Origin: a virus
Taxonomy: Duplodnaviria; Caudoviricetes
IMG/VR virus record: IMGVR_UViG_3300030104_000782
Span: 1 to 62,424 of that record
Length of the DNA: 62,424 bases
Direction: 5' to 3' (one strand)
The notes under the pieces were generated by a model, which made no database searches, was not told where the DNA came from, and saw nothing but the letters and a program-made list of their open reading frames with translations. The position numbers were made by a program, and so were the translations under genes. Positions 4,857 through 62,202 of the stretch are shown here, piece by piece. Positions within the stretch are counted from its first letter, which is position 1. Each line of letters starts with the position of its first letter.

Positions 4857-7279
4857 TATTCGCTATCCTCCTCTGCGTCTTTAACTTGTTTCAATATTTC
4901 ACTATAAGATTTCTGTGACTTGAGCTCAGCTTCCATTGCATCTTTCTCACGTGAAGCTGCAATTCTCTGTTGAGCAATGTCTTCATTCTTATCTGCCTTC
5001 GCTAAAGCAGTTTGTGAATCTATCTCTGCTTTAGTAAGTTCGGTTTGAGCACGTAGTTGATCAGCTTGTGCTTTTCTTTGTATCTCCATGCCTTGTAGTT
5101 CTAGCTGTTTATTAGCTAGATCTATCTCAGGTTGCTGTTGAGCAATCTGTTGTGCTTGCATAAGTGCTTGTTCTTGTCCTGTAATCTGCTGAGTTGCTTC
5201 TGCTGCCAGCATAGCGATTTGATTCTGTACTTCCATAGGTACAGGTTGTCCCTCAGGAGGTAACTGTATGCCTTGTTCAGCTAACAACTGTTGCACCTGT
5301 AATCTGTACTTCATAGCTTGATGCTCTTGTATGTGTGCCTGCAATGCTTGCACTGCAGCAGGATTCTGTTGCACCATAGGGTTTTGCATGAACGCCATGT
5401 GTGCAGCTATGTGTGCATCATGGTTCTGTTCCATAAATGCTTTCAACGGCATACCCATAAGTGCATCTTGGTTTTCTTGCACAGGGTCTTTAGGAAACAT
5501 GTCTTCTGGTGGTTCTAGTATCTCGTCTATGTTTTGTACACCTAATGCACTGTACATTTTAAAATATGCTTCTCTAAGATTGTGTAGTTGAGGTGCACTT
5601 TGTGCTAACTGTAGTTGTGTTTGTGCTAGAACTACACGCTGACTCATACTAAATATGTTAGGGTCGCTTACAGGTAAGACATCTACTTGCCCATCGAAAT
5701 CCTTAGCGTAAATTGTACGTGAGCCACCCACTACATCGTATGGATATTCTGGTGGTAACGACTCAGCGAAAACTCTAGCTAAAAGTTTGAACTCAGTTTT
5801 TTGTGCATAATGTAGACGTTTATGTATCGCCGACATTATTTTACTACCACGCTCTAGCATAGCGATAGTTGTACCAACAGGTGCTTCTTGTCCCATGTCA
5901 CCTATCTTCATATCAGCTATGTTTGCAAATCTTTGACCACTTTCTACTATTACACCCAATAGTTGTGCTAACACACCACTAGGTTCTTTGTATGGCAATG
6001 GCATAAGTGCGTCTCGTATAGTACCTCCTGGCACATCTACATCTCGCCATTCTCCTGGCTCTATAGGAGTATCATCATCCCTGATTCGCATTCCTCTAGC
6101 TTTAAAACCAGCAGGCAAGTTACTAAGTGTTCCTGCATCTACGAGTTGTCTAAGTAATGAAGTCGCTGATTTACTAAGACCACCTATCATGTGTATTAGA
6201 CCGAAGCCATAAAAACCTAGTCCTGGCAGAAACTTGTAGTGTACAAAATATTCTATCTTTCTTTTTAGAGGATCATCAGGTGAAAAGTTCCTGCGGATAG
6301 CTAATACTTGATTGCTCTCTTTTATCATCGTTACAATGTACGGGAGGGCTATACCTGTTTCCTCACCGTTTTCTGTATCTTCGAATCCTTCTAAGTCTAA
6401 GTCAACATGCATCTCCAGTACTGTGTATGTTTCTGAGTCTACTGGTTTACTGACACCAGTTATTTCATCTATCTTACTTTTGACACTTGAGTACTCATCT
6501 TCGTAAGGTTCTCCTATTTCTACATCTCGGTACAAACCTGCTTGTTGCATTTTACGGATTTGGTTCTCCGTCATCTGTATTACATGTGTCGCTCTAGGGC
6601 AATCAAGTAAGTCTGTCGTCGAATACGAGACAATGAAGTCCTCAGCCATTATAAAATTACTGACTGCTCTAGCTTTTGATGGATCGTAAAAAACTTTTTT
6701 GAAAGCAGAACCAGACAAGGGTAGATAAAACAACAGCTGGTCTAGTTCAGGATCGTACTCTTCCATGTTGTAAGTTATCTGATAGTTCATAAACTCTTTG
6801 ACTCTTTGTGATTGCTGTTCTTTTGCAGCATCTACGTTACCTAGAACTTGTGTTTTAACAGGTCCATCAGCAGGCAACAGTTCTTTGTATGCTTGTGCTT
6901 GGAACTGTGCTACAGACTCTGATAATAGTGGGTGGTGTACACCACTGGCTCCTGGAAAAGGTTCAGTTCTATCTTCAGTTTTTATCCCTAGTAAATCTAG
7001 TCCTTTCGTAAATGTGTCTAACCATTCTTTTCTTGACTCTTCGTCTTCGTCAAAGTCTGTACACAAATCCATACTAAGTGCACGAAGGTCGTCTTCATTT
7101 ATAACTTCCGCTAAATTAGAATTAAAATCTTCTATAGGATCTGGTACTATGGCGATATTAGATTCTTCTTCGCCTTCGATAAGTATGTTTTCAGGTAAGA
7201 CTGGCTCTTCTTCTTCGGGCAGTTCTATCTCTAGTTCTTCGGCAGAAACTGGTGACAATGTTGATTTTTCTACAGCCAT
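4856..7279 (-). CDS. Portal protein (P22-like, long C-terminal barrel)
   Basis: 807 aa directly after TerL; LPLSGSAFKKV and GFYGFGLIH motifs; Gln-rich helical tail. Confidence 0.85.
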   Translation of the reverse strand: MAVEKSTLSPVSAEELEIELPEEEEPVLPENILIEGEEESNIAIVPDPIEDFNSNLAEVINEDDLRALSMDLCTDFDEDEESRKEWLDTFTKGLDLLGIKTEDRTEPFPGASGVHHPLLSESVAQFQAQAYKELLPADGPVKTQVLGNVDAAKEQQSQRVKEFMNYQITYNMEEYDPELDQLLFYLPLSGSAFKKVFYDPSKARAVSNFIMAEDFIVSYSTTDLLDCPRATHVIQMTENQIRKMQQAGLYRDVEIGEPYEDEYSSVKSKIDEITGVSKPVDSETYTVLEMHVDLDLEGFEDTENGEETGIALPYIVTMIKESNQVLAIRRNFSPDDPLKRKIEYFVHYKFLPGLGFYGFGLIHMIGGLSKSATSLLRQLVDAGTLSNLPAGFKARGMRIRDDDTPIEPGEWRDVDVPGGTIRDALMPLPYKEPSGVLAQLLGVIVESGQRFANIADMKIGDMGQEAPVGTTIAMLERGSKIMSAIHKRLHYAQKTEFKLLARVFAESLPPEYPYDVVGGSRTIYAKDFDGQVDVLPVSDPNIFSMSQRVVLAQTQLQLAQSAPQLHNLREAYFKMYSALGVQNIDEILEPPEDMFPKDPVQENQDALMGMPLKAFMEQNHDAHIAAHMAFMQNPMVQQNPAAVQALQAHIQEHQAMKYRLQVQQLLAEQGIQLPPEGQPVPMEVQNQIAMLAAEATQQITGQEQALMQAQQIAQQQPEIDLANKQLELQGMEIQRKAQADQLRAQTELTKAEIDSQTALAKADKNEDIAQQRIAASREKDAMEAELKSQKSYSEILKQVKDAEEDSE

Positions 7280-9648: not shown

Positions 9649-9801
9649 GCCAATAACCTACCAATAGGTCAAGCCAATACGCTGTATCCTCTTCTACAAG
9701 AGGCATTTAGCAACATCCTATTACCCTATTGGCTGTTTCGATGTTTTTGACTAACTGAAAAAGAAAAATCCATTCCTCATATATAAGGCAATAACCCAAT
9801 A
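9649..9801 (+). repeat. CAATA-box element copy 1 (inverted homologue at 30079-30230)
   Basis: Shares TATTGGCTGTTTC, AAATCC, AAGGC-n-ATA-n-CCAATA and box spacing with the reverse complement of 30079-30230. Confidence 0.75.
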
Positions 9802-9803
9802 TG

Positions 9804-9828
9804 AAAATGGCTCCCGAAGGAGCCATTT
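9804..9828 (-). terminator. Repeated early-cassette terminator, copy 1
   Basis: AAATGGCTCC-TTCG-GGAGCCATTT hairpin, short U-tract. Confidence 0.8.
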
Positions 9829-9843
9829 AACAAAAGTTATTAA

Positions 9844-10178: not shown

Positions 10179-10206
10179 AAAAAAATGGCTCCCGAAGGAG
10201 CCATTT
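10179..10206 (-). terminator. Repeated early-cassette terminator, copy 2
   Basis: Same hairpin plus U-tract. Confidence 0.85.
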
Positions 10207-10962: not shown

Positions 10963-10990
10963 AAAAAAATGGCTCCCGAAGGAGCCATTT
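10963..10990 (-). terminator. Repeated early-cassette terminator, copy 3
   Basis: Same hairpin plus U-tract. Confidence 0.85.
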
Positions 10991-11468: not shown

Positions 11469-11495
11469 AAAAAAATGACTCCCGAAGGAGCCATT
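11469..11495 (-). terminator. Repeated early-cassette terminator, copy 4
   Basis: One substitution gives a G-U wobble on the minus strand, keeping the stem. Confidence 0.8.
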
Positions 11496-11512
11496 TAACA
11501 AGAGCCAAGATA

Positions 11513-11851: not shown

Positions 11852-12207
11852 GAGGCACTCCTAATTTCGACATAACCCCATTTACGCAAGTAATTAAGGT
11901 TATCTTCGCATAAGCCAAGTTCCTTTTTAACTATGCGAACAGGACGACCTTTATCGCCGATGCCGTGAACCATTTCCTTAATGTTCTGCGAACGAGGCAC
12001 ACAGGCACCCATGCGAAACTGCTCGGACTGTATGACAATATCGGTGGGCGATATACCATAGTCTCGTGTTTCGCGACTTTTTGGGGTCTTACGTTTTACA
12101 TGCTCAGAAAGTAAAGCTAGTGCCTCTTCGGCAGTAGGATTACCATCGACAGCTTTTCTGAGCGTTTTGAAAACAGTCGACAGGTTTTTGTTATATGGAT
12201 TTGTCAT
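11848..12207 (-). CDS. Hypothetical protein
   Basis: 119 aa, coupled overlaps. Confidence 0.65.
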   Translation of the reverse strand: MTNPYNKNLSTVFKTLRKAVDGNPTAEEALALLSEHVKRKTPKSRETRDYGISPTDIVIQSEQFRMGACVPRSQNIKEMVHGIGDKGRPVRIVKKELGLCEDNLNYLRKWGYVEIRSAS

Positions 12208-12428
12208 TAATATTCTCCTTTCTTATTCCATAATTTAGAATATGCTCTTTCAAGCATATATAGACGATCTAGCTTAGATTCTAAAGCATAGAACATCGAT
12301 ATAGCACCCGAAAGTAGCACGCCAATCATACCGAGAAACTCGGATTCTCTACCATAGTTGCCGTCGGCGAGTAGCATAGCTAACAGTACACCGAGGAACA
12401 GGGTTATTATAGTTTTGGTTATATTCAT
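12207..12428 (-). CDS. Small membrane protein
   Basis: Two hydrophobic segments; SD AAAGGAG. Confidence 0.65.
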   Translation of the reverse strand: MNITKTIITLFLGVLLAMLLADGNYGRESEFLGMIGVLLSGAISMFYALESKLDRLYMLERAYSKLWNKKGEY

Positions 12429-15281: not shown

Positions 15282-15314
15282 ATCATGCCTGACTGTACAG
15301 AGAAGTAAAGGACT
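15282..15314 (-). promoter_or_regulatory. Repeated early promoter
   Basis: AGTCCTTTACT, 16 bp, CATGAT. Confidence 0.65.
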
Positions 15315-15318
15315 AGGT

Positions 15319-15446
15319 TGCTCTCGGTGGTAAATTAGCTCTGTCATTATGAAACCTGTTAAGTCGAGCATCACACACATTTACCTAGAGAATCGGCACC
15401 CAAGAGCACGTACCCATAGGAGACTTAACAGTCTAAAAATCTTTAC
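15319..15446 (-). ncRNA. Candidate pseudoknotted small RNA
   Basis: Own promoter at 15453-15485; interleaved helices 15356-65/15422-31, 15329-35/15379-85 and 15319-29/15397-408. Confidence 0.5.
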
Positions 15447-15450
15447 CCAG

Positions 15451-15849
15451 TCATGATATATCATTTAACAACAGAGTAAAGGACTTTTTTAATAAATCCC
15501 AGTCATAAGGTTTTTTAAGTGCTAGTGCTGGTCCGAGTCGTAACCCTTTATCGGCAACCTCACGAGCATTAGCACCATAGTACAAGTATATTTGTGCGTC
15601 AGGAGTTCTAACTAATATAAAACAACGACCACCATGTAAAGAGCGTTTTATCAACCACCCTACTTGCTCTGGTCGCAGTCCTATCTTTTTTCCTGCGTTT
15701 ACAACCTTTAATTCTACCCAATACTCAACACCATCGTCGCATGCGTTAAAATCTGGGATCCCACGCCCAGTACTTCCCGTCTCGATTCGCTGTACGTGCA
15801 CGTTATTGAGGTTTTTATTGACTAAACCCCAAAAAGCATTCTCTTTCAC
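15451..15849 (-). CDS. PD-(D/E)XK nuclease, Holliday-junction resolvase/VRR-NUC-like
   Basis: RIE..GIPD..WVELK..RPEQ..W motifs. Confidence 0.8.
   Translation of the reverse strand: MKENAFWGLVNKNLNNVHVQRIETGSTGRGIPDFNACDDGVEYWVELKVVNAGKKIGLRPEQVGWLIKRSLHGGRCFILVRTPDAQIYLYYGANAREVADKGLRLGPALALKKPYDWDLLKKSFTLLLNDIS
15453..15485 (-). promoter_or_regulatory. Repeated promoter inside the 3' end of the resolvase gene
   Basis: AGTCCTTTACT, 16 bp, TATCAT. Confidence 0.65.
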
Positions 15850-24228: not shown

Positions 24229-25737
24229 TTATAAAATAGGTCTAAAAAATTTAGAAGTACTGGGTTGAACTATGTGTAAATTTTTACGAGTACGTGTTAC
24301 AGCTACATAAAATGCTCTGTTCTCTCCGTCAGGATTTGAGTAAAGTTCGTTCCAAGTTTTAACGGATATATCTGTAAACACCACTACATTATCTGCCTCA
24401 CCACCTTTTGCAGCATGTATAGTAGACAATCGAATTCTAGGGTTAGATATTTTTTCACCTCTGCGTAAACAAGCTATTATGTATTCTCTTTGTGTTGCAC
24501 CTATCCTGTCGAGTGCTTCGTGCCAAACAGCATCTGTTAGTAAACCATGTTTTTCCTTTAACTCAGATAAGTCTAGTAAATCATCTTCGCCAAGTCCTGG
24601 CAGTTTTTTATGGCCTCGAGCGACACCTACACCTACAGACATAAAATAATATATATCACGAACTTTAGAGGCTGAGACTTTCCTTTCTTTTCGTAACAGT
24701 TCCCAGTTACCTATCGCATCTAACAGTTCTTGTTTTACAGACAGAACGTTGTTTCTAGCGTAAATGAATCCAATTTGTTGCAAAAATTTTTCTACCCTAT
24801 TTAGTATGTATCCGTTGCGAGCAAGTACCAGCCATTCGCCATCACTAAAGTCTAAATGTTCATGGGAAGTGTGAATTATAATTTCACCCTCAACAGAGCG
24901 AGGAGTCCAGGACTTAACTCTCCTGTTGACAGTTGGTATTCTGTTTAATATACCTTGTGCCACCTCGTGTACTTTTTTAGGAATACGATATGAGTTTTCT
25001 AAAACTGTTACCTCGCCGTCTAACTCTACAAAAGTTTCTACATCTGCACCTGCCCACTGGTATATTGCTTGATCGTCATCACCAGCAACATGTACATGCT
25101 TAACTCCTTGTGCTAATTTCTTTATACAATCCCACTGCAGTTTAGATAAATCTTGTGCTTCGTCAACTATAAGAACTTCTAGCGAGGGTTTAGTTTTTTC
25201 TTTTAAAAATAAATACAACATATCTGTGTAATCTTTTAAAAATCTTTCTTCTTTATATCTCTCTAAACCTGTACAAAACCAGTTGACATGGTTCCAAGGA
25301 ATATCTAAGTTAGCTTTTTCCCATTGCTCCCTAACAGTAACCTTTTTATTTCTAGCTATGTTTTCCATAAAAAGCATTTGATCACCTTTTGATAACCCAA
25401 ACACAGCACCTTCTTCTTTTTTAAGTTGACCATTTAATGGCTCACCCATTATTTTACTGAACTCTTTATAATGTGAACGAGCCATTATATCGGCTGTGCT
25501 TAGACCGAGCCAATGGTAACAAAGTGAGTGTATAGTTCTGAAATAAACTAAATCTTCTTGAGTCAAATCGAAACGATCACTTGCACGTTCTAGTGCTTCG
25601 TTTGCAGCTTTTTTAGTAAACGCTAAATAACCTATTTTATGTGGTGATACACCATCCTTTAGGTAATCCTCTGTTAGGTTTAAAAGTTTTGTAGTTTTAC
25701 CAGTGCCAGGTGGACCGAGGATTATATTCCATGTCAT
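24229..25737 (-). CDS. SF1 UvrD/Rep-like helicase
   Basis: GPPGTGKT, VDEAQD, GDDDQAIY, TIHAAKGGE and YVAVTR motifs. Confidence 0.95.
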   Translation of the reverse strand: MTWNIILGPPGTGKTTKLLNLTEDYLKDGVSPHKIGYLAFTKKAANEALERASDRFDLTQEDLVYFRTIHSLCYHWLGLSTADIMARSHYKEFSKIMGEPLNGQLKKEEGAVFGLSKGDQMLFMENIARNKKVTVREQWEKANLDIPWNHVNWFCTGLERYKEERFLKDYTDMLYLFLKEKTKPSLEVLIVDEAQDLSKLQWDCIKKLAQGVKHVHVAGDDDQAIYQWAGADVETFVELDGEVTVLENSYRIPKKVHEVAQGILNRIPTVNRRVKSWTPRSVEGEIIIHTSHEHLDFSDGEWLVLARNGYILNRVEKFLQQIGFIYARNNVLSVKQELLDAIGNWELLRKERKVSASKVRDIYYFMSVGVGVARGHKKLPGLGEDDLLDLSELKEKHGLLTDAVWHEALDRIGATQREYIIACLRRGEKISNPRIRLSTIHAAKGGEADNVVVFTDISVKTWNELYSNPDGENRAFYVAVTRTRKNLHIVQPSTSKFFRPIL

Positions 25738-26024
25738 TCTGGGTCAAGTACTGCTTTCTTTAAATCTGGATCTTGCATCACATATGCACCAGTCGGTTCA
25801 CCCTCCTCTTCAGTAAATGTACCTTTAACTATTTCTTTTACTTCTTCTTTCGGAAGTTCTTCTGGTACATCCATTGAACCACCTATTAACGAATCCTCGT
25901 TGAGCACGTCTGCTAGGTCTCCTAGAATTAACAATGCTTCCCTTATAGGTTGCTTTACATGTTCGGGAGTAACGCGAGATTCGAGCAGTATTATATACTG
26001 CTCGACATTAGATCTCATACTCAC
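25734..26024 (-). CDS. Hypothetical protein
   Basis: 96 aa acidic, coupled overlaps. Confidence 0.55.
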   Translation of the reverse strand: MSMRSNVEQYIILLESRVTPEHVKQPIREALLILGDLADVLNEDSLIGGSMDVPEELPKEEVKEIVKGTFTEEEGEPTGAYVMQDPDLKKAVLDPE

Positions 26025-26287
26025 TAGAGTCTCTCTAAAAAGTTTCTAGCGTATGCCTCTGGTTCGTGGTCAATACTAATACCACTAAAGTGTTGTGCAA
26101 TTACTTCGATGAACTCTTCGGCATCTTTTACCAACGCTTCGAAAATTTCTTCTTCAGTAGACTCTAAGTCAGAGTACTCATTACCCAATGTTGTTACTGC
26201 ATCCCAGTGATCGTGGTTAGCGTTAAAAAACAGATCGCTAGTAAAAGGATCCACCCAAGTTTGTATTTCTAAATTTTGTTTAGACAT
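26024..26287 (-). CDS. Hypothetical acidic protein
   Basis: 87 aa with AGGAG SD. Confidence 0.65.
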   Translation of the reverse strand: MSKQNLEIQTWVDPFTSDLFFNANHDHWDAVTTLGNEYSDLESTEEEIFEALVKDAEEFIEVIAQHFSGISIDHEPEAYARNFLERL

Positions 26288-26310
26288 ATTTTTCTCCTAT
26301 TTATATAAAA

Positions 26311-26407
26311 GAAGTTACTACCAACACAGCGCCACTGAGGTAGTTTTGTGAAGAGGGGTTGAAAGCGTCCCTCGTAGACCTCGTTTTTATGTATCGATAG
26401 TAACTCC
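26311..26407 (-). ncRNA. Candidate ~100-nt structured small RNA
   Basis: 18-bp closing stem with five G-U pairs that form only on the minus strand, nested stems, own promoter, U-tract at 3' end. Confidence 0.65.
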
Positions 26408-26416
26408 ATATCCATC

Positions 26417-26445
26417 ATGATACTCCTTAACTTTTTAAAAGTAAA
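26417..26445 (-). promoter_or_regulatory. Promoter for the candidate sRNA
   Basis: TTTACT, 17 bp, TATCAT. Confidence 0.65.
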
Positions 26446-26453
26446 GTAGTTTT

Positions 26454-26693
26454 TTAATGTAAAGTTTGGTACACGTCTTCGTATTCTTCCAGAGCAGATT
26501 CTGTAGCATGAGCGATAAGAAGTCTCATCACGTCTGGTGTTATTTCTGATTTTAAACCAACTGCTAATGCTGCCCAAACTAATGCGATGACAAGAGCTTG
26601 ATCTTCCTTGTCTGTATCTGACAAGACTGAGTACACTTTTACACAAAGACCTTCGGCTAGATCCATAACACGTTGTATTTCGTCTTCTTCCAC
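26454..26693 (-). CDS. Hypothetical protein
   Basis: 79 aa, GTG start just below a TATGAT box. Confidence 0.5.
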   Translation of the reverse strand: MEEDEIQRVMDLAEGLCVKVYSVLSDTDKEDQALVIALVWAALAVGLKSEITPDVMRLLIAHATESALEEYEDVYQTLH

Positions 26694-30230: not shown

Positions 30231-30249
30231 CAAAAAAACTTAATACTCC

Positions 30250-30279
30250 TTTACTGATTCGTTAATATAGGTATATGAT
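30250..30279 (+). promoter_or_regulatory. Rightward promoter
   Basis: CTCCTTTACT, 18 bp, TATGAT, then AAAGGAG SD. Confidence 0.6.
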
Positions 30280-43113: not shown

Positions 43114-43240
43114 ATTATTCTCCAATTATATGTAGTTGTTTTAAGGCAGGTTATTGCTGTACCTGAAAGCTGCAGTAGTAAACTGTACTCTTATCATACT
43201 TAAATTCTCTAGAATAATAAATAAAAAATATTTATTTAAA

Positions 43241-43276
43241 AAAAGTCCTTTACTTTATTGTACAATGTTATATGAT
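43241..43276 (+). promoter_or_regulatory. Early-type promoter copy in the late region
   Basis: AAAAGTCCTTTACT, 16 bp, TATGAT. Confidence 0.7.
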
Positions 43277-54445: not shown

Positions 54446-57211
54446 TTAATGTTTCTCTAATTCTTCAACTTTAGCCGAAAGTTCTTGCACTGCTTTTACT
54501 AATATCGGTACAAACTTTTCGTATTGCAAAGAATACTGTTTACCATCACCTGACAAGTTACTAACCAAATTAGTTTTATCAGATAAGTTATGGTTTATTG
54601 ATTCTTCTAAAGCAACAACATCTTGTGCTTTAAAACCAACATCCATCCAATCTTCTTTATGCGAACCATCATGTGTAATACTGTTTAAATCTGCATCAGG
54701 GTTTGTATCCCAATCTATGTAATTATGTCTTTTGTCCCAATAGTAAGTATATGGTATTAATTGATTTACAAAATCTAACCCAGCAGATAACGGTTGAAAG
54801 TCCGTTTTGTCTCTTTCATCAGATGCAACAGTTATTGATACTTGTGCATTTATTTTTGAGTGATCGCCATTACCTATAGTCACTTCGTTATTACCACTTG
54901 ATATTGCACCTCCAGGTGAGCCTGAGGTACCAGAACTCGTGCCTAGTAACATGTTATTAGACCCTGTACTTATAGATCTACCAGCGTGCTTACCGATTGC
55001 TACAGTATTGTTACAACCTGCTCCATTTTCTAGTGCTTCAACTCCTAATGAGGTGTTACCAGAACCACTTGTTTGATCAAGTGAAGATGCTCTACCTACT
55101 GCTGTGTTGTCAGTACCAGTAGTTAGTTTACCCATAGCTTCGTATCCCAAGGCTGTGTTATTTGTACCTGTTGTACAAGCATCTAATGATTGAGCACCTA
55201 CTGCTGTGTTTTGAGCACCTGTTGTATTCACTAACATAGCATCTTTACCTATTGCTGTGTTATTAGAAGCTGAAGTGTTGGCACCTAAAGCATTTGTGCC
55301 AACTGCTGTGCAACTTTCACCTGTTGTCAAAGCATCCATTGAGTTTGCACCAACAGTAGTGTTTTGATTGCCTGTTGTTTCAGCAAATAACGCTTTGTAC
55401 CCAACTGCTGTGCTATTTACTCCTCCAGAATTAGTAGTGTTATGATTATATAAAGATTGATAACCTATTGCTGTCATGAACTTACCAGTGGTGTTTGTAT
55501 ACAACGCTTGTAAACCTACTCCCACGTTATATATTCCAGTAGTGTTGTTTTCCATTGCACCTTTTCCTAGTGCTGTATTATCATCACCTGTGGTAGTATT
55601 AAACAAAGCATTATGTCCTACTGCTGTGTTATTACCTGCTGTGGTAGCACTATACAATGCTTGAAAACCTACACCAACTTGGTTTGCTCCTGTGGTGTTT
55701 GTATGCATAGCAGACTTTCCAACTGCTGTGTTGTTAGAAGCTGTGGTGTTTGCTCCTAAAGCATCTCTACCCACTCCCACGTTACTGCCCCCTGTAGTGT
55801 TTGCATCCATAGCTAAAGTTCCTATGGCAACATTGTTTTCACCAGAGGTGCTTAATTGCATTGCTCTATCACCTACAGCTACGTTGTTTCCCGCAGTTGT
55901 TAGTGTTGATAAAGCTAAGTGTCCGATAGCTATGTTATCACCACCTGTAGTTTGCGCCCCTAGAGCATCTACTCCAACAGCTACGCTATCTATCCCAGTT
56001 GTGTTGGCATCTAAAGCGGATTTACCCACAGATACATTATTAGTGCCTGTGGTGTTAGAACCTAAAGAACTTTTCCCAACTGCTGTGTTATTAGAAGCTG
56101 TAGTAGTGTTTGCTAAAGCACTATAACCAAGTGCTGTATTTTCAGCACCTGTGGTGATTGATTGACCTGCGGCAGAACCTACGGCTACATTTTCTGTTCC
56201 TGAAGTGTTTGCTGTCAATGCTTGATAACCAACTGCTGTATTATCATTTGCGGTGGTTGAAGCATCTAACGTAAATGAACCAATAGCAACATTTCTTGTA
56301 CCTGTTGTTATGCTTAGTCCAGCATCATTACCAAAAGCATCATTAGAAACTCCTGTTGTAAGGTCGCTTAATGCCTTATGTCCTACACCTGTGTTATTAG
56401 TTCCCTCTGTGCAGGCATCACCTGACCTTTCGCCTACGAATACATTTTCAGCACCTGTTGTTATTGCTTCACCTGCAGCTTTACCGATAGCTGTATTACT
56501 ATGTCCTGTGGTTGCTGCGTTTAGAGCATTCTTACCTACAGCAGTATTATCGTCTCCCGAAGTTAAAGCTGCAAAAACATCTGCACCTAAACCAGTATTA
56601 TTATCAGCAGCATCAATAGTGCCTGTAGCATTATCCCCAATCATAAGAGAATTTGTGCCAAAAGTTTTACTTGTGATGCCGTTATAACTTGCTGCTGTAG
56701 AAGCACCTGTTGTAGCTAAATCACCACCTATAGAAACATCATCTGTAACTGTTAAATCGTCTTGTACTTTTAGGTCTACTGTAGAAAGACTAGCAAAAGC
56801 GTCTACTACTGCTGCTCCACTACCAGCACCATCTAGGTAAACTGCCTTTGTGTCGCCAGCTGGTATGGTTACGTTAGCTCCAGAGCCTTGTGAAATTATT
56901 ATGTTCTGAGAACCTGAAGTTCCATTCTCAATAAACTGCATTCTGCTTATAGTGTTCGGTCCAATAGTTATTGTGCATGCACTGTCTAGTGTGCCTGTGT
57001 ATTTAAGATACATAGCTCTGCCAGGATCGGCAGCACCATCAGCCACGGTTGTAGTGTGAGTATCAGCATTTGTTGTTATTGCTTCTGTACCGAAACTAAG
57101 AGCTTCTCCTATTAATTCTAGGTTTGTATTTGTAACATCGCCCCAAGTTCCTGACGCATCACCTGTCGCCATTTCATTCAATCTTAGATCATTTACGTAT
57201 GAACTTGCCAT
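54446..57211 (-). CDS. Tail fibre with 14-aa beta-roll repeats and C-terminal S74 intramolecular chaperone
   Basis: Many NTAVG..AL..NTTG repeats; SDERDK cleavage motif; GF.AQ, LVKAVQELS. Confidence 0.9.
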   Translation of the reverse strand: MASSYVNDLRLNEMATGDASGTWGDVTNTNLELIGEALSFGTEAITTNADTHTTTVADGAADPGRAMYLKYTGTLDSACTITIGPNTISRMQFIENGTSGSQNIIISQGSGANVTIPAGDTKAVYLDGAGSGAAVVDAFASLSTVDLKVQDDLTVTDDVSIGGDLATTGASTAASYNGITSKTFGTNSLMIGDNATGTIDAADNNTGLGADVFAALTSGDDNTAVGKNALNAATTGHSNTAIGKAAGEAITTGAENVFVGERSGDACTEGTNNTGVGHKALSDLTTGVSNDAFGNDAGLSITTGTRNVAIGSFTLDASTTANDNTAVGYQALTANTSGTENVAVGSAAGQSITTGAENTALGYSALANTTTASNNTAVGKSSLGSNTTGTNNVSVGKSALDANTTGIDSVAVGVDALGAQTTGGDNIAIGHLALSTLTTAGNNVAVGDRAMQLSTSGENNVAIGTLAMDANTTGGSNVGVGRDALGANTTASNNTAVGKSAMHTNTTGANQVGVGFQALYSATTAGNNTAVGHNALFNTTTGDDNTALGKGAMENNTTGIYNVGVGLQALYTNTTGKFMTAIGYQSLYNHNTTNSGGVNSTAVGYKALFAETTGNQNTTVGANSMDALTTGESCTAVGTNALGANTSASNNTAIGKDAMLVNTTGAQNTAVGAQSLDACTTGTNNTALGYEAMGKLTTGTDNTAVGRASSLDQTSGSGNTSLGVEALENGAGCNNTVAIGKHAGRSISTGSNNMLLGTSSGTSGSPGGAISSGNNEVTIGNGDHSKINAQVSITVASDERDKTDFQPLSAGLDFVNQLIPYTYYWDKRHNYIDWDTNPDADLNSITHDGSHKEDWMDVGFKAQDVVALEESINHNLSDKTNLVSNLSGDGKQYSLQYEKFVPILVKAVQELSAKVEELEKH

Positions 57212-60236: not shown

Positions 60237-60592
60237 GATGTAGTTATTGTAACCTCCCCTAGTTCAGATGTTGCTTCTCTTAAAGAAAAACTAGAACCTA
60301 TTGTGTTGCTGTTTAATGCAAACATTATAGGTGAACTAACACCTGCAGCATTCTTAGGGTTGCTAACCTGTACTGTACCTAAACTAATAGTAGACTTTAC
60401 GTCTGGTCTAGGGTTAAGTAAAGCTTCAGGATCTATCGTGTTTCTGTTTACTCTTAGTTGTGGGTGTTTTGGGTCGAACATGTCAGGTCCAACTAATAGA
60501 CCATTCCATGTTTTTTTCATCTCATTTAGCTTATATCTAAAACCACTTATGTCACATATTCCGTATGCGTTTTTACCACTTGAGTATGCCAT
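60233..60592 (-). CDS. Conserved head-tail region protein
   Basis: GK.A..ICD.SGF.Y..W.GL.V..D.KHPQ. Confidence 0.6.
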   Translation of the reverse strand: MAYSSGKNAYGICDISGFRYKLNEMKKTWNGLLVGPDMFDPKHPQLRVNRNTIDPEALLNPRPDVKSTISLGTVQVSNPKNAAGVSSPIMFALNSNTIGSSFSLREATSELGEVTITTS

Positions 60593-61272
60593 TAATAACT
60601 TATCCTTGGTGTTAGATGTATACTAGCTCTATCTCTGTCTTCATCTGCTGCTCTATTAAAACTTTCTTCATAGTCTACTTTTAACAAACCAGCTTTTTGT
60701 GGGTTTCGTTTTAAACAAAGTTGGTATGCTAGTCCTAGTGTCATACACTGTATGAATCTGCTAGGAACTTCTTGATCTTGTGCTGATGCAGTTGCATCGT
60801 CTATTCTCTGCACTCTATAGCTTATAAATTGATATCTTGTAGCATTATCAGGTGTGGGGTATAGATTTAATACTGGTGTTTCTTTTCTTTCTACAAAATA
60901 TTGTGAAGGTCTTCCTGTAGTTGTTTTATCAGGAATGCTTAGATATTCTGAACGACTAATCCTTTCTATTGTTATGTCACTAAATGTTGAGCTTGACACA
61001 CTATCGTAAACTCTGACGATAGCTTCAAGCACATCTACATCAAATGGGTTTAAGGTATATGTAGATGTACCTGAAGTTAAGTCGAGGGAGACTTGTTCTA
61101 CTGTCCAAAGGTTTATGCCTCTGTTTGCCCAGTCTGAGAACATTATGTTAAGGGATCTTCTGGCAGTTGCTGCGTCGTAACCTGTTCGCATCTCTAAACC
61201 TGCAAGTTCGTATGCTTCTTCGATTACTTCTGCTGTGTCTAAACTAAATGATTTAGTGCCAGAAGTTGCCAT
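60592..61272 (-). CDS. Head-tail adaptor protein
   Basis: IEEAYE..G..ARRSLN...WANRG.NLW..GRP.QY motif. Confidence 0.65.
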   Translation of the reverse strand: MATSGTKSFSLDTAEVIEEAYELAGLEMRTGYDAATARRSLNIMFSDWANRGINLWTVEQVSLDLTSGTSTYTLNPFDVDVLEAIVRVYDSVSSSTFSDITIERISRSEYLSIPDKTTTGRPSQYFVERKETPVLNLYPTPDNATRYQFISYRVQRIDDATASAQDQEVPSRFIQCMTLGLAYQLCLKRNPQKAGLLKVDYEESFNRAADEDRDRASIHLTPRISY

Positions 61273-61682: not shown

Positions 61683-61695
61683 AGTTTACCTCCTA

Positions 61696-62202
61696 TTAAG
61701 CGTCAGCAAATGGTGTAACTATAGTGCCTGAGCCTAAAATTATACCTTCAACAGCATACTTAGCAGAAGCTATAGCAGTTACTTTTACTATACTGCCAGC
61801 TAATCCACCTTTAGTTGAACCGTTCATGGTGATTACATCGTTAGATGCACCTGATATAAATACCTTACCACTTGCATCATCTTTACCTGAATAAAGACCA
61901 CCAACAAACTTATCAGTTCCGTCTGTTAGTATGTCCATGTCTGTAGCTGCAGTTTCTACTACGAAAAAGAAACTAGCACCTAAATTGTTAAGTTGGTTAG
62001 GATCATCATCCTGTCCTGGTGCTGTAGCCACAATACTAGGAAGTGTGAACTTACCATCCGCATCGTTACATGTTAATACTTTACCTGCGTGTGCAGCAAC
62101 TGTCAGACTAGTGTCTGCTGTTAAACTTACAACTGTCGCATTACCTGCCGAAATAAAACCAGCTAAGGATCTAACTGGTCCCGAAAATGTCGATTTTGCC
62201 AT
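61696..62202 (-). CDS. Virion structural protein, copy B
   Basis: About 15 aa differences from 18..524. Confidence 0.6.
   Translation of the reverse strand: MAKSTFSGPVRSLAGFISAGNATVVSLTADTSLTVAAHAGKVLTCNDADGKFTLPSIVATAPGQDDDPNQLNNLGASFFFVVETAATDMDILTDGTDKFVGGLYSGKDDASGKVFISGASNDVITMNGSTKGGLAGSIVKVTAIASAKYAVEGIILGSGTIVTPFADA

Follow-up and report, generated by a model that had tools for sequence, protein, structure and literature searches.

A covariation-supported RNA rod behind a family promoter between the replication genes of a marine tailed phage

Genome, locus and promoter family

The window (the whole stretch of DNA that was analyzed, 62.4 kb, 38% G+C) is a complete tailed-phage genome in which the minus strand carries nearly all genes. 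By large terminase, its closest isolates are a lake phage (58%), a phage of unknown host (57%) and the Pelagibacter phages HTVC027P (54%) and HTVC023P (52%), and its close relatives are marine metagenome sequences. No tRNA or tmRNA was found within the window, and a scan of 60 ORFs detected no gene for a phage RNA polymerase. A 300-nt direct repeat (82% identity) lies at both record ends (12-311 and 61690-61989) and spans two paralogous ORFs of ~168 aa (18-524 and 61696-62202). Further repeats occur in the tail genes: a 921-aa tail-spike-like gene (54446-57211) contains a 51-nt-periodic array of at least 14 copies (55116-56563), and a tail-region gene (60592-61272) contains a perfect 18-bp hairpin with an 18-nt loop (60985-61085, minus strand; z −5.15).

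The rod-like RNA hairpin studied here (26311-26407, minus strand, 97 nt) lies between replication genes, with an archaeo-eukaryotic-type primase gene upstream and a UvrD helicase gene downstream. Along the minus strand, a 79-aa ORF of unassigned function (26454-26693) ends in a TAA stop (26456-26454) that overlaps the A-tract of a promoter (26417-26456), made up of this A-tract (26456-26450), TTTACT (26445-26440), a 17-nt spacer containing AAGGAG, and TATCAT (26422-26417). The rod begins 10 bases after the −10 element and is directly followed by a U-rich tail, UUUUAU (26305-26310). The Shine-Dalgarno sequence (SD) GGAG (26297-26294), 13 nt past the rod, and the ATG at 26287-26285 belong to an 87-aa gene (26024-26287), the first one behind the rod, after which come a 96-aa ORF (25734-26024) and the UvrD-type helicase (24229-25737), all on the minus strand. 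Neither the 79-aa nor the 87-aa ORF has a family match in Pfam or PHROG. Both evolve fast, with amino-acid identities to relatives of 40-62% and 42-84%, respectively, unlike the primase and UvrD of the same relatives, which are ~84-93% identical. In the nearest annotated phage, DSL-LC04 (L052), a single small ORF (5512-5769, 85 aa) lies between primase and UvrD and is annotated as 'RNA polymerase sigma-G factor', a label that seems doubtful given its size.

The promoter upstream of the rod belongs to a family that we obtained by repeat finding (repeat families D5 and D7) followed by regular-expression listing. The family form is an A-rich stretch, GTCC TTTACT, N16-18 and [CT]AT[CG]AT, and 12 sites are present in the window, 10 on the minus and 2 on the plus strand. 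Besides the rod promoter (26456-26417, in D7), the minus-strand sites are 30090-30048, 15494-15453, 15323-15282, 13020-12979, 12494-12453, 11467-11426, 10961-10919, 10165-10123 and 7352-7309; the plus-strand sites are 30236-30279 and 43235-43276. At 10 of the 12, AGAAAGGAGAAAAnnATG follows within ~10-40 nt downstream. The count of GTCCTTTACT is 8 against 0.21 expected, and 8 was reached by none of 100 shuffles. The rod promoter is one of the two exceptions to such short leaders, the next ribosome-binding site (RBS) being 110 nt away. It carries CTAC where the family has GTCC; its orthologue in loci L025-L027 has GTCC, and the orthologous site in relatives with 79% primase identity displays the full consensus, GTCC TTTACT..TATGAT. 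The rod promoter is 97.5% identical in all five rod-bearing relatives compared. A first-pass annotation of this DNA, made from the sequence alone, had placed a promoter at 26417-26445; the hexamers are where it put them, and both the repeated family and the conservation of the site make this call well supported. Judging from the position of the −10 element, transcription would be expected to start at ~26412-26409.

The phage's evident terminators consist of a 10-pair stem with 4-5 G-C pairs, a 4-nt loop and then 7 U. A compact repeated terminator (AAATGGCTCC TTCG GGAGCCATTT and a T-run) occurs on the minus strand at 10183-10206, 10967-10990 and 11473-11496, with a similar copy near 9800-9830, and several family promoters are located just after compact terminators of this kind. 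The repeated terminators close small cassettes of one gene each, and every cassette restarts with a family promoter. The interval 30.05-30.28 kb, across which two family promoters face one another, is a likely early control region. Lastly, the family promoter at 15494-15453 is separated from the next one by ~130 nt in which no ORF or RBS is convincing (15283-15452, minus strand). This stretch is possibly a second promoter-driven non-coding transcript; it yielded no significant structure (z +0.26), no tRNA and no Rfam match.

Fold and covariation of the rod

Minus-strand RNA of the rod region (26420-26305, 116 nt) has a minimum free energy (MFE) of −35.7 kcal/mol, compared with −22.57 ± 3.21 kcal/mol in 200 dinucleotide shuffles (z −4.09), none of which was equally good. 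Neither the plus-strand RNA of the region (z −0.08, equalled by 90 of 200 shuffles) nor the minus-strand single-stranded DNA (z −0.88, equalled by 42 of 200) folds significantly. The MFE structure comprises, in order, an 18-bp outer helix, a 5 x 5-nt loop, a 7-bp helix, a 4 x 11-nt loop, a 5-bp apical helix and an 11-nt loop. Helix 1 pairs the 5' arm GGAGUUACUAUCGAUACA (26390-26407) with the 3' arm UGUGUUGGUAGUAACUUC (26311-26328); four of its pairs are G-U in the window. In helix 2 the 5' strand is ACGAGGU (26378-26384), which pairs with 26341-26337 and 26335-26334 (ACCUC.GU), and helix 3 (26353-26373) joins GAGGG (26373-26369) to CCCUC (26357-26353) around the 11-nt apical loop (26368-26358). 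The 11-nt internal loop on the 3' side, UUCACAAAACU (26342-26352), is conserved, UCACA and AAC being invariant in all seven variants of the rod described below. In a longer fold, a small alternative hairpin, UUCUUUU/AGGAGAA, involves the downstream SD region.

Most of this architecture had been anticipated in the first-pass annotation. Its 18-bp outer stem (26407-26390 with 26328-26311) is borne out as the MFE structure, its bubble and its inner stems GAGGU/ACCUC and GAGGG/CCCUC all lie within that structure, and the UUUU that it noted after the stem is present at 26310-26307. Two details need correction: the outer stem was said to hold five G-U pairs and holds four, and a proposed pairing of an apical CGCU with GGCG in the bubble fails in most relatives, since the loop has CGC only in the window and locus L031, and AUCU or UUCU in five of seven variants. 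By genome-wide, GC-corrected energy, the rod ranks ~28th among ~8,300 windows of 120 nt, so energy alone has no power to single it out, and the case for it is one of covariation and context.

Homologous loci were collected with the neighboring primase as query (8 viral and 28 metagenome loci), and a 231-nt region around the rod served as BLAST query against them; a blastn search of an isolated-phage collection with 1.3 kb returned no match. The entire rod was found in 10 loci (L012, L013, L031, L030, L023, L015, L002, L017, L001 and L014). The rods of L012 and L013 are the window's own, and those of L023, L015 and L002 are identical among themselves, giving seven distinct rod sequences including the window's, all from marine phage contigs. 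A contig from a DNA run (X10) also bears a variant like that of L030 and L023. Identity of the rod to the window's own is 88.7-92.8% in four of the five relatives compared and 76% in L014. Identities nearby are 65-82% for the 79-aa gene, 73-84% for the 87-aa gene and 81-89% for UvrD, the rod being higher in four of the five comparisons. Besides the 3'-side internal loop, with UUCACA(A/G)AAC, the loop sequence CUUUCA is conserved.

RNAalifold on a plain MAFFT alignment of the seven variants recovered the same three helices, with three pairs altered on both sides and with every one-sided change in helix 1 keeping its pairing through G-U. We also aligned the variants with a covariance model (29 pairs in three helices; 203 pair cells over seven sequences); in this alignment, which is fitted to the model, 99.5% of the 203 cells are paired and six pairs (seven cells) are altered on both sides. 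Column shuffles gave 1.4 ± 0.9 double-change pairs, with the real values reached in none of 500, and sliding the 3' partners by 1-3 columns left 38-61% of cells paired and 0-2 double-change pairs. Among the 17 modeled pairs of helix 1, seven are invariant, seven changed on one side with pairing kept and three changed on both. In helix 2, three of seven pairs are double-changed in L014 and 100% of cells are paired, again in the alignment fitted to the model. All five pairs of helix 3 are invariant across the seven variants, which makes this helix uninformative for covariation, and its apical loop varies in length by 1 nt. Five of the six double-change pairs sit on the L014 branch of the seven sequences. 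The homologue covariation that the first-pass annotation had named as a check is thus present as compensatory changes in six pairs, G-U intermediates included, and we are highly confident that the rod is an RNA structure kept by selection.

The window contains a second rod-like fold of ~100 nt (12215-12330, minus strand; z −4.10), which lies within a 73-aa ORF (12207-12428) and ends at the next RBS. It was considered as a sister element and rejected, and it serves as an internal contrast to the rod: the one relative recovered (85% identical) alters the 3' strand without compensation, and given these changes and the position inside an ORF we do not take it as a related RNA.

Presence and absence of the rod among relatives

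Ten loci (L020, L019, L039, L018, L016, L032, L021, L022, L029 and L003) are without the rod. They keep the promoter, their alignment to the window skips from ~26415 to ~26307, and the RBS of the downstream gene stands 20-30 nt behind the same promoter. The rod is a discrete cassette of ~105 nt with 18-nt inverted ends. We built a midpoint-rooted maximum-likelihood tree (20 rows) from the 3'-terminal 597 nt of the primase gene; as a tree of one gene segment, it could be blurred by recombination. All seven rod-bearing rows fall in one group of nine (support 92/97), and the rod-less L016 and L018 nest next to L001 and L017 (99/98). On this primase tree the distribution is best explained by one gain and one loss of the rod, a minimum of two changes. 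L016 and L018 retain all four neighboring genes; the rod is therefore dispensable, at least there, and the same observation led us to reject a partner gene co-varying with the rod. The leader of the rod-less sister clade (…ACATAAACAAAACGAGGAAAAATTATG) has a 14-mer in common with the 5' internal loop and helix 2 5' strand of the rod (…ACATAAAAACGAGGU…). Either the rod would have grown around an old leader and its SD, or that leader would be a rod remnant.

A covariance-model search found one copy of the rod in the window and one in each of the 10 rod-bearing loci; the 251,624 bases searched contained no further copy. In viral contigs, pattern scans, both exact and gapped, returned only two known relatives and an unrelated GC-rich contig (L042). 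A pattern scan of prokaryote genome contigs gave nine matches in unrelated taxa, the best two with covariance-model E values of 0.27 and 0.98; these are weak and extend over the seeded apical part only, and we attribute them to chance.

These distributions bear on whether the element acts as DNA, either as a hairpin for replication or priming on single-stranded DNA or as a palindromic, MITE-like insert of no use to the phage. Its location between the primase and helicase genes and its presence or absence as a discrete cassette with inverted ends would fit such an element. However, the single-stranded DNA fold is insignificant, as given above, and the G-U pairs, four in the window plus the intermediates, would be mismatched both in a cruciform and on the other strand. 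The compensatory changes, moreover, indicate selection on pairing, which an inverted repeat bound by a transposase does not need. A mobile repeat would also be expected in multiple dispersed copies, whereas a single copy is present in the 62-kb genome and one in each relative, and the scans beyond these loci returned only the two known relatives and chance matches. We reject a MITE-like mobile repeat on this count and regard a DNA-level role as a whole as highly improbable.

At locus L025 (79% primase identity), an unrelated hairpin, CUCCCCCUUUG ... CAAAGGGGGA, occupies the same leader position (1905-2020) and buries the SD of a different downstream gene. As read from the sequence, it is also spanned by an ORF that starts in the −10 element and ends just after the next ATG. 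The leader behind this promoter would thus have acquired structure twice, once as the rod and once as the L025 hairpin.

A comparable ORF of 49 codons crosses the rod of the window (26269-26418, minus strand): it starts in the −10 element, at an ATG (26418) 4 nt after the AAGGAG of the promoter spacer, and its stop lies beyond the rod, 16 nt past the following ATG. On read-through mRNA of the primase operon, it may act as a translation device, in which ribosomes would melt the rod and terminate just past the next start codon, coupling translation, or it may encode a peptide of 47-49 aa with a hydrophobic tail. In favor of such a role, 15 of 17 sequences, some of them rod-less with an ORF of 4-13 codons, have the SD and ATG; in six of seven variants no stop interrupts the ORF within the rod, and its stop lies 5-16 nt past the next ATG; the different hairpin of L025 is spanned by a similar ORF; and a majority frame, YLSGAVLVVTSFII-NRRK, can be read. 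However, one-base indels split the frames, the window and L014 reading FQPLxTKL and the other five variants SPSSQNYLSG, and the ORF of L014 ends after 27 codons. Two of three frames are free of stops over the 3' two-thirds of the rod in six of seven variants (L014 has a stop in each), so that an open ORF carries little weight. Changes in the arms are mostly non-synonymous yet preserve pairs, ATC replaces ATG in two relatives, no Pfam or PHROG match was found, and a search of 5.8 billion proteins returned only two matches, both near-identical (84-91%). A conserved protein across the rod was therefore rejected, as its frame is not conserved, L014 is cut short and the only database proteins are these two. 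Translation of the short upstream ORF on read-through mRNA is possible and would melt the rod, but as an account of why the rod exists we consider the ORF an unlikely candidate.

Function of the rod and comparison with known systems

The first-pass annotation had inferred a functional phage small RNA (sRNA) or riboregulator. Its core stands in so far as a selected, strand-specific RNA lies behind a family promoter; a discrete transcript of ~100 nt is a candidate, and the predicted trans targets of the rod are no better than those of shuffled sequences. Such a stand-alone phage sRNA of ~100 nt would be terminated at the U-tract or cut from a longer RNA and would act in trans, possibly as a riboregulator that base-pairs by its conserved loops, or as a decoy for a protein or an enzyme acting on double-stranded RNA. 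Consistent with this, the promoter is directly upstream, 3-6 U follow the stem in seven of seven variants and are absent in rod-less relatives, the two loop sequences are conserved, the rod is more conserved than its flanking genes, and a fold predicted to be this stable would persist as a discrete species. However, the short U tail (four U in the window) and an A/U- and G-U-rich stem base, with the pairs G-C, G-U, A-U, G-C, U-A and U-A, are unlike the phage's own terminators with their 4-5 G-C pairs and 7 U, and a strong terminator would sever the conserved promoter from the operon that it drives in all rod-less relatives. Release of a discrete sRNA would need an intrinsic terminator, for which a G+C-rich stem directly ahead of ~5 or more U is expected. 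A consensus terminator scan was silent at the rod, but it takes loops of 3-8 nt only and is an unfair test. Against 79 translation-initiation regions of the phage, the best RNAduplex energy was −36.3 kcal/mol, compared with −36.4 ± 2.9 kcal/mol for shuffled rods, 46 of 100 of which scored as low. The Rfam search that had been suggested as a check gave no family for the rod: cmscan with Rfam 15 found no match in the whole window at gathering thresholds, and at E ≤ 10 the region 26200-26520 matched only psRNA6 (10.8 bits against a threshold of 60, E 0.75), at 26432-26520 and outside the rod. Contigs from RNA run X20 cover 26058-26262 of a relative, a span that leaves the rod outside. We regard a free trans-acting sRNA as possible but doubtful.

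A special form of this idea, drawn by analogy with adenovirus VA RNA, is that the released rod would be a stable double-stranded decoy of ~100 nt for RNase III, an RNA-sensing defense or RNA polymerase. We think this very unlikely; if true, the rod would be an RNA-only phage counter-measure in an abundant marine bacterium, recently gained by one sub-clade.

The best explanation in our view, to which we give an even chance, is that the rod is a cis-acting structured 5' leader of the operon of small genes and UvrD helicase, serving as a 5'-terminal stabilizer or a processing site. The promoter at 26445-26417 (minus strand) would start transcription a few bases before G26407, in which case the first ~97 nt of the RNA would fold as the three-helix rod. 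With the −10 element ending at 26417 and the rod starting at 26407, a predicted start 5-8 nt past the −10 would leave ~1-4 unpaired nucleotides. After the rod would come a U/A-rich spacer and then the RBS of the 87-aa gene, with the 96-aa and UvrD helicase genes behind it; on the expression of this operon the rod would act in cis. In 10 rod-less relatives the same promoter directly drives the downstream gene, which makes a 5' leader the simpler reading; since the promoter drives the same operon there, driving that operon is its ancestral job. Given this conserved role, the rod is in our reading an insertion into the transcript of the 87-aa/96-aa/UvrD operon, of which it would form the structured 5' leader.

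The likeliest mechanism for such a leader would be a 5'-terminal hairpin that protects the transcript from decay dependent on its 5' end. The rod may also be a double-stranded processing site of the RNase III type, and cutting there would part the operon mRNA from RNA that reads through from the primase gene. If some transcripts ended at the U-tract, this could throttle the promoter, and a stable rod RNA of ~100 nt could come off as a by-product. Direct translational occlusion is weak as a mechanism, because the downstream SD lies outside the rod.

Irrespective of mechanism, the rod is a new, narrowly distributed, covariation-supported RNA structure that is absent from Rfam 15. To our knowledge, hardly any structured RNAs are known from uncultivated marine phages, and the library of papers searched contains none that names pelagiphage together with sRNA. 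A term search of a study of HTVC023P-type genomes gave no occurrence of promoter, small RNA, sRNA, hairpin or terminator (PMC9599517). Leaders that occur in nature with and without the rod, and are otherwise near-identical, provide a ready-made test of post-transcriptional tuning of replication genes, and the rules by which promoters and terminators are arranged in this phage group emerged from the same analysis. General importance is limited by the occurrence of the rod in one sub-clade, as seven variants, and by its loss in one lineage.

Several known systems can be set beside the rod. The phage's own cassettes at 10-15.5 kb use the same promoter family; unlike the rod locus, they have a short plain leader, are closed by compact 10-pair hairpins and 7 U, and contain no rod. 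6S RNA is a rod of ~180 nt with a large central bubble that mimics an open promoter. The rod resembles it in having an internal loop, and the first-pass annotation had seen in it a loose likeness to an RNA polymerase decoy. This likeness does not survive comparison: the rod has 97 nt, about half the size of 6S RNA, its 5 x 5-nt loop is no large mimic of an open promoter, and it has no Rfam match at E ≤ 10. The put RNAs of phage HK022 are promoter-proximal, cis-acting antiterminators that form two separate stem-loops. Like them, the rod would be a structured RNA that comprises the first ~100 nt transcribed from a phage promoter, ahead of a long operon; unlike them, it is a single rod. Terminator prediction found no convincing terminator in the operon from 26.3 kb to ~11.5 kb, and there is thus no evident need for antitermination.

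Parallels also exist for a 5' leader that stabilizes its mRNA or is processed. In Escherichia coli, mRNA is reportedly stabilized by 5'-terminal stem-loops (Emory, Bouvet & Belasco 1992; Bouvet & Belasco 1992; both cited in PMC3997798). Like the stabilizers of the ompA and papA type, the rod is predicted to lie ~2-5 nt from the 5' end and before an unstructured A/U-rich spacer and an RBS; it differs in being far longer (97 nt, three helices), and its 5' end is a predicted one. RNase III processing hairpins are found in phage leaders, among them the lambda N leader and, in T7, the early sites R0.3 and R1.1, and the substrate of RNase III is about two turns of coaxial double-stranded RNA; the helices of the rod measure 18 bp, 7 bp and 5 bp, with internal loops between them. 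The rod differs from these sites in having no sequence or Rfam relationship to them, and its cleavage is a prediction. Like them, it is long, irregular and double-stranded with internal loops in a stem-bubble-stem arrangement, and it has a promoter or an upstream cistron on one side and, on the other, the RBS of the following gene of a polycistronic phage operon. Overall, the rod belongs to a known kind of element, the promoter-proximal structured phage RNA.
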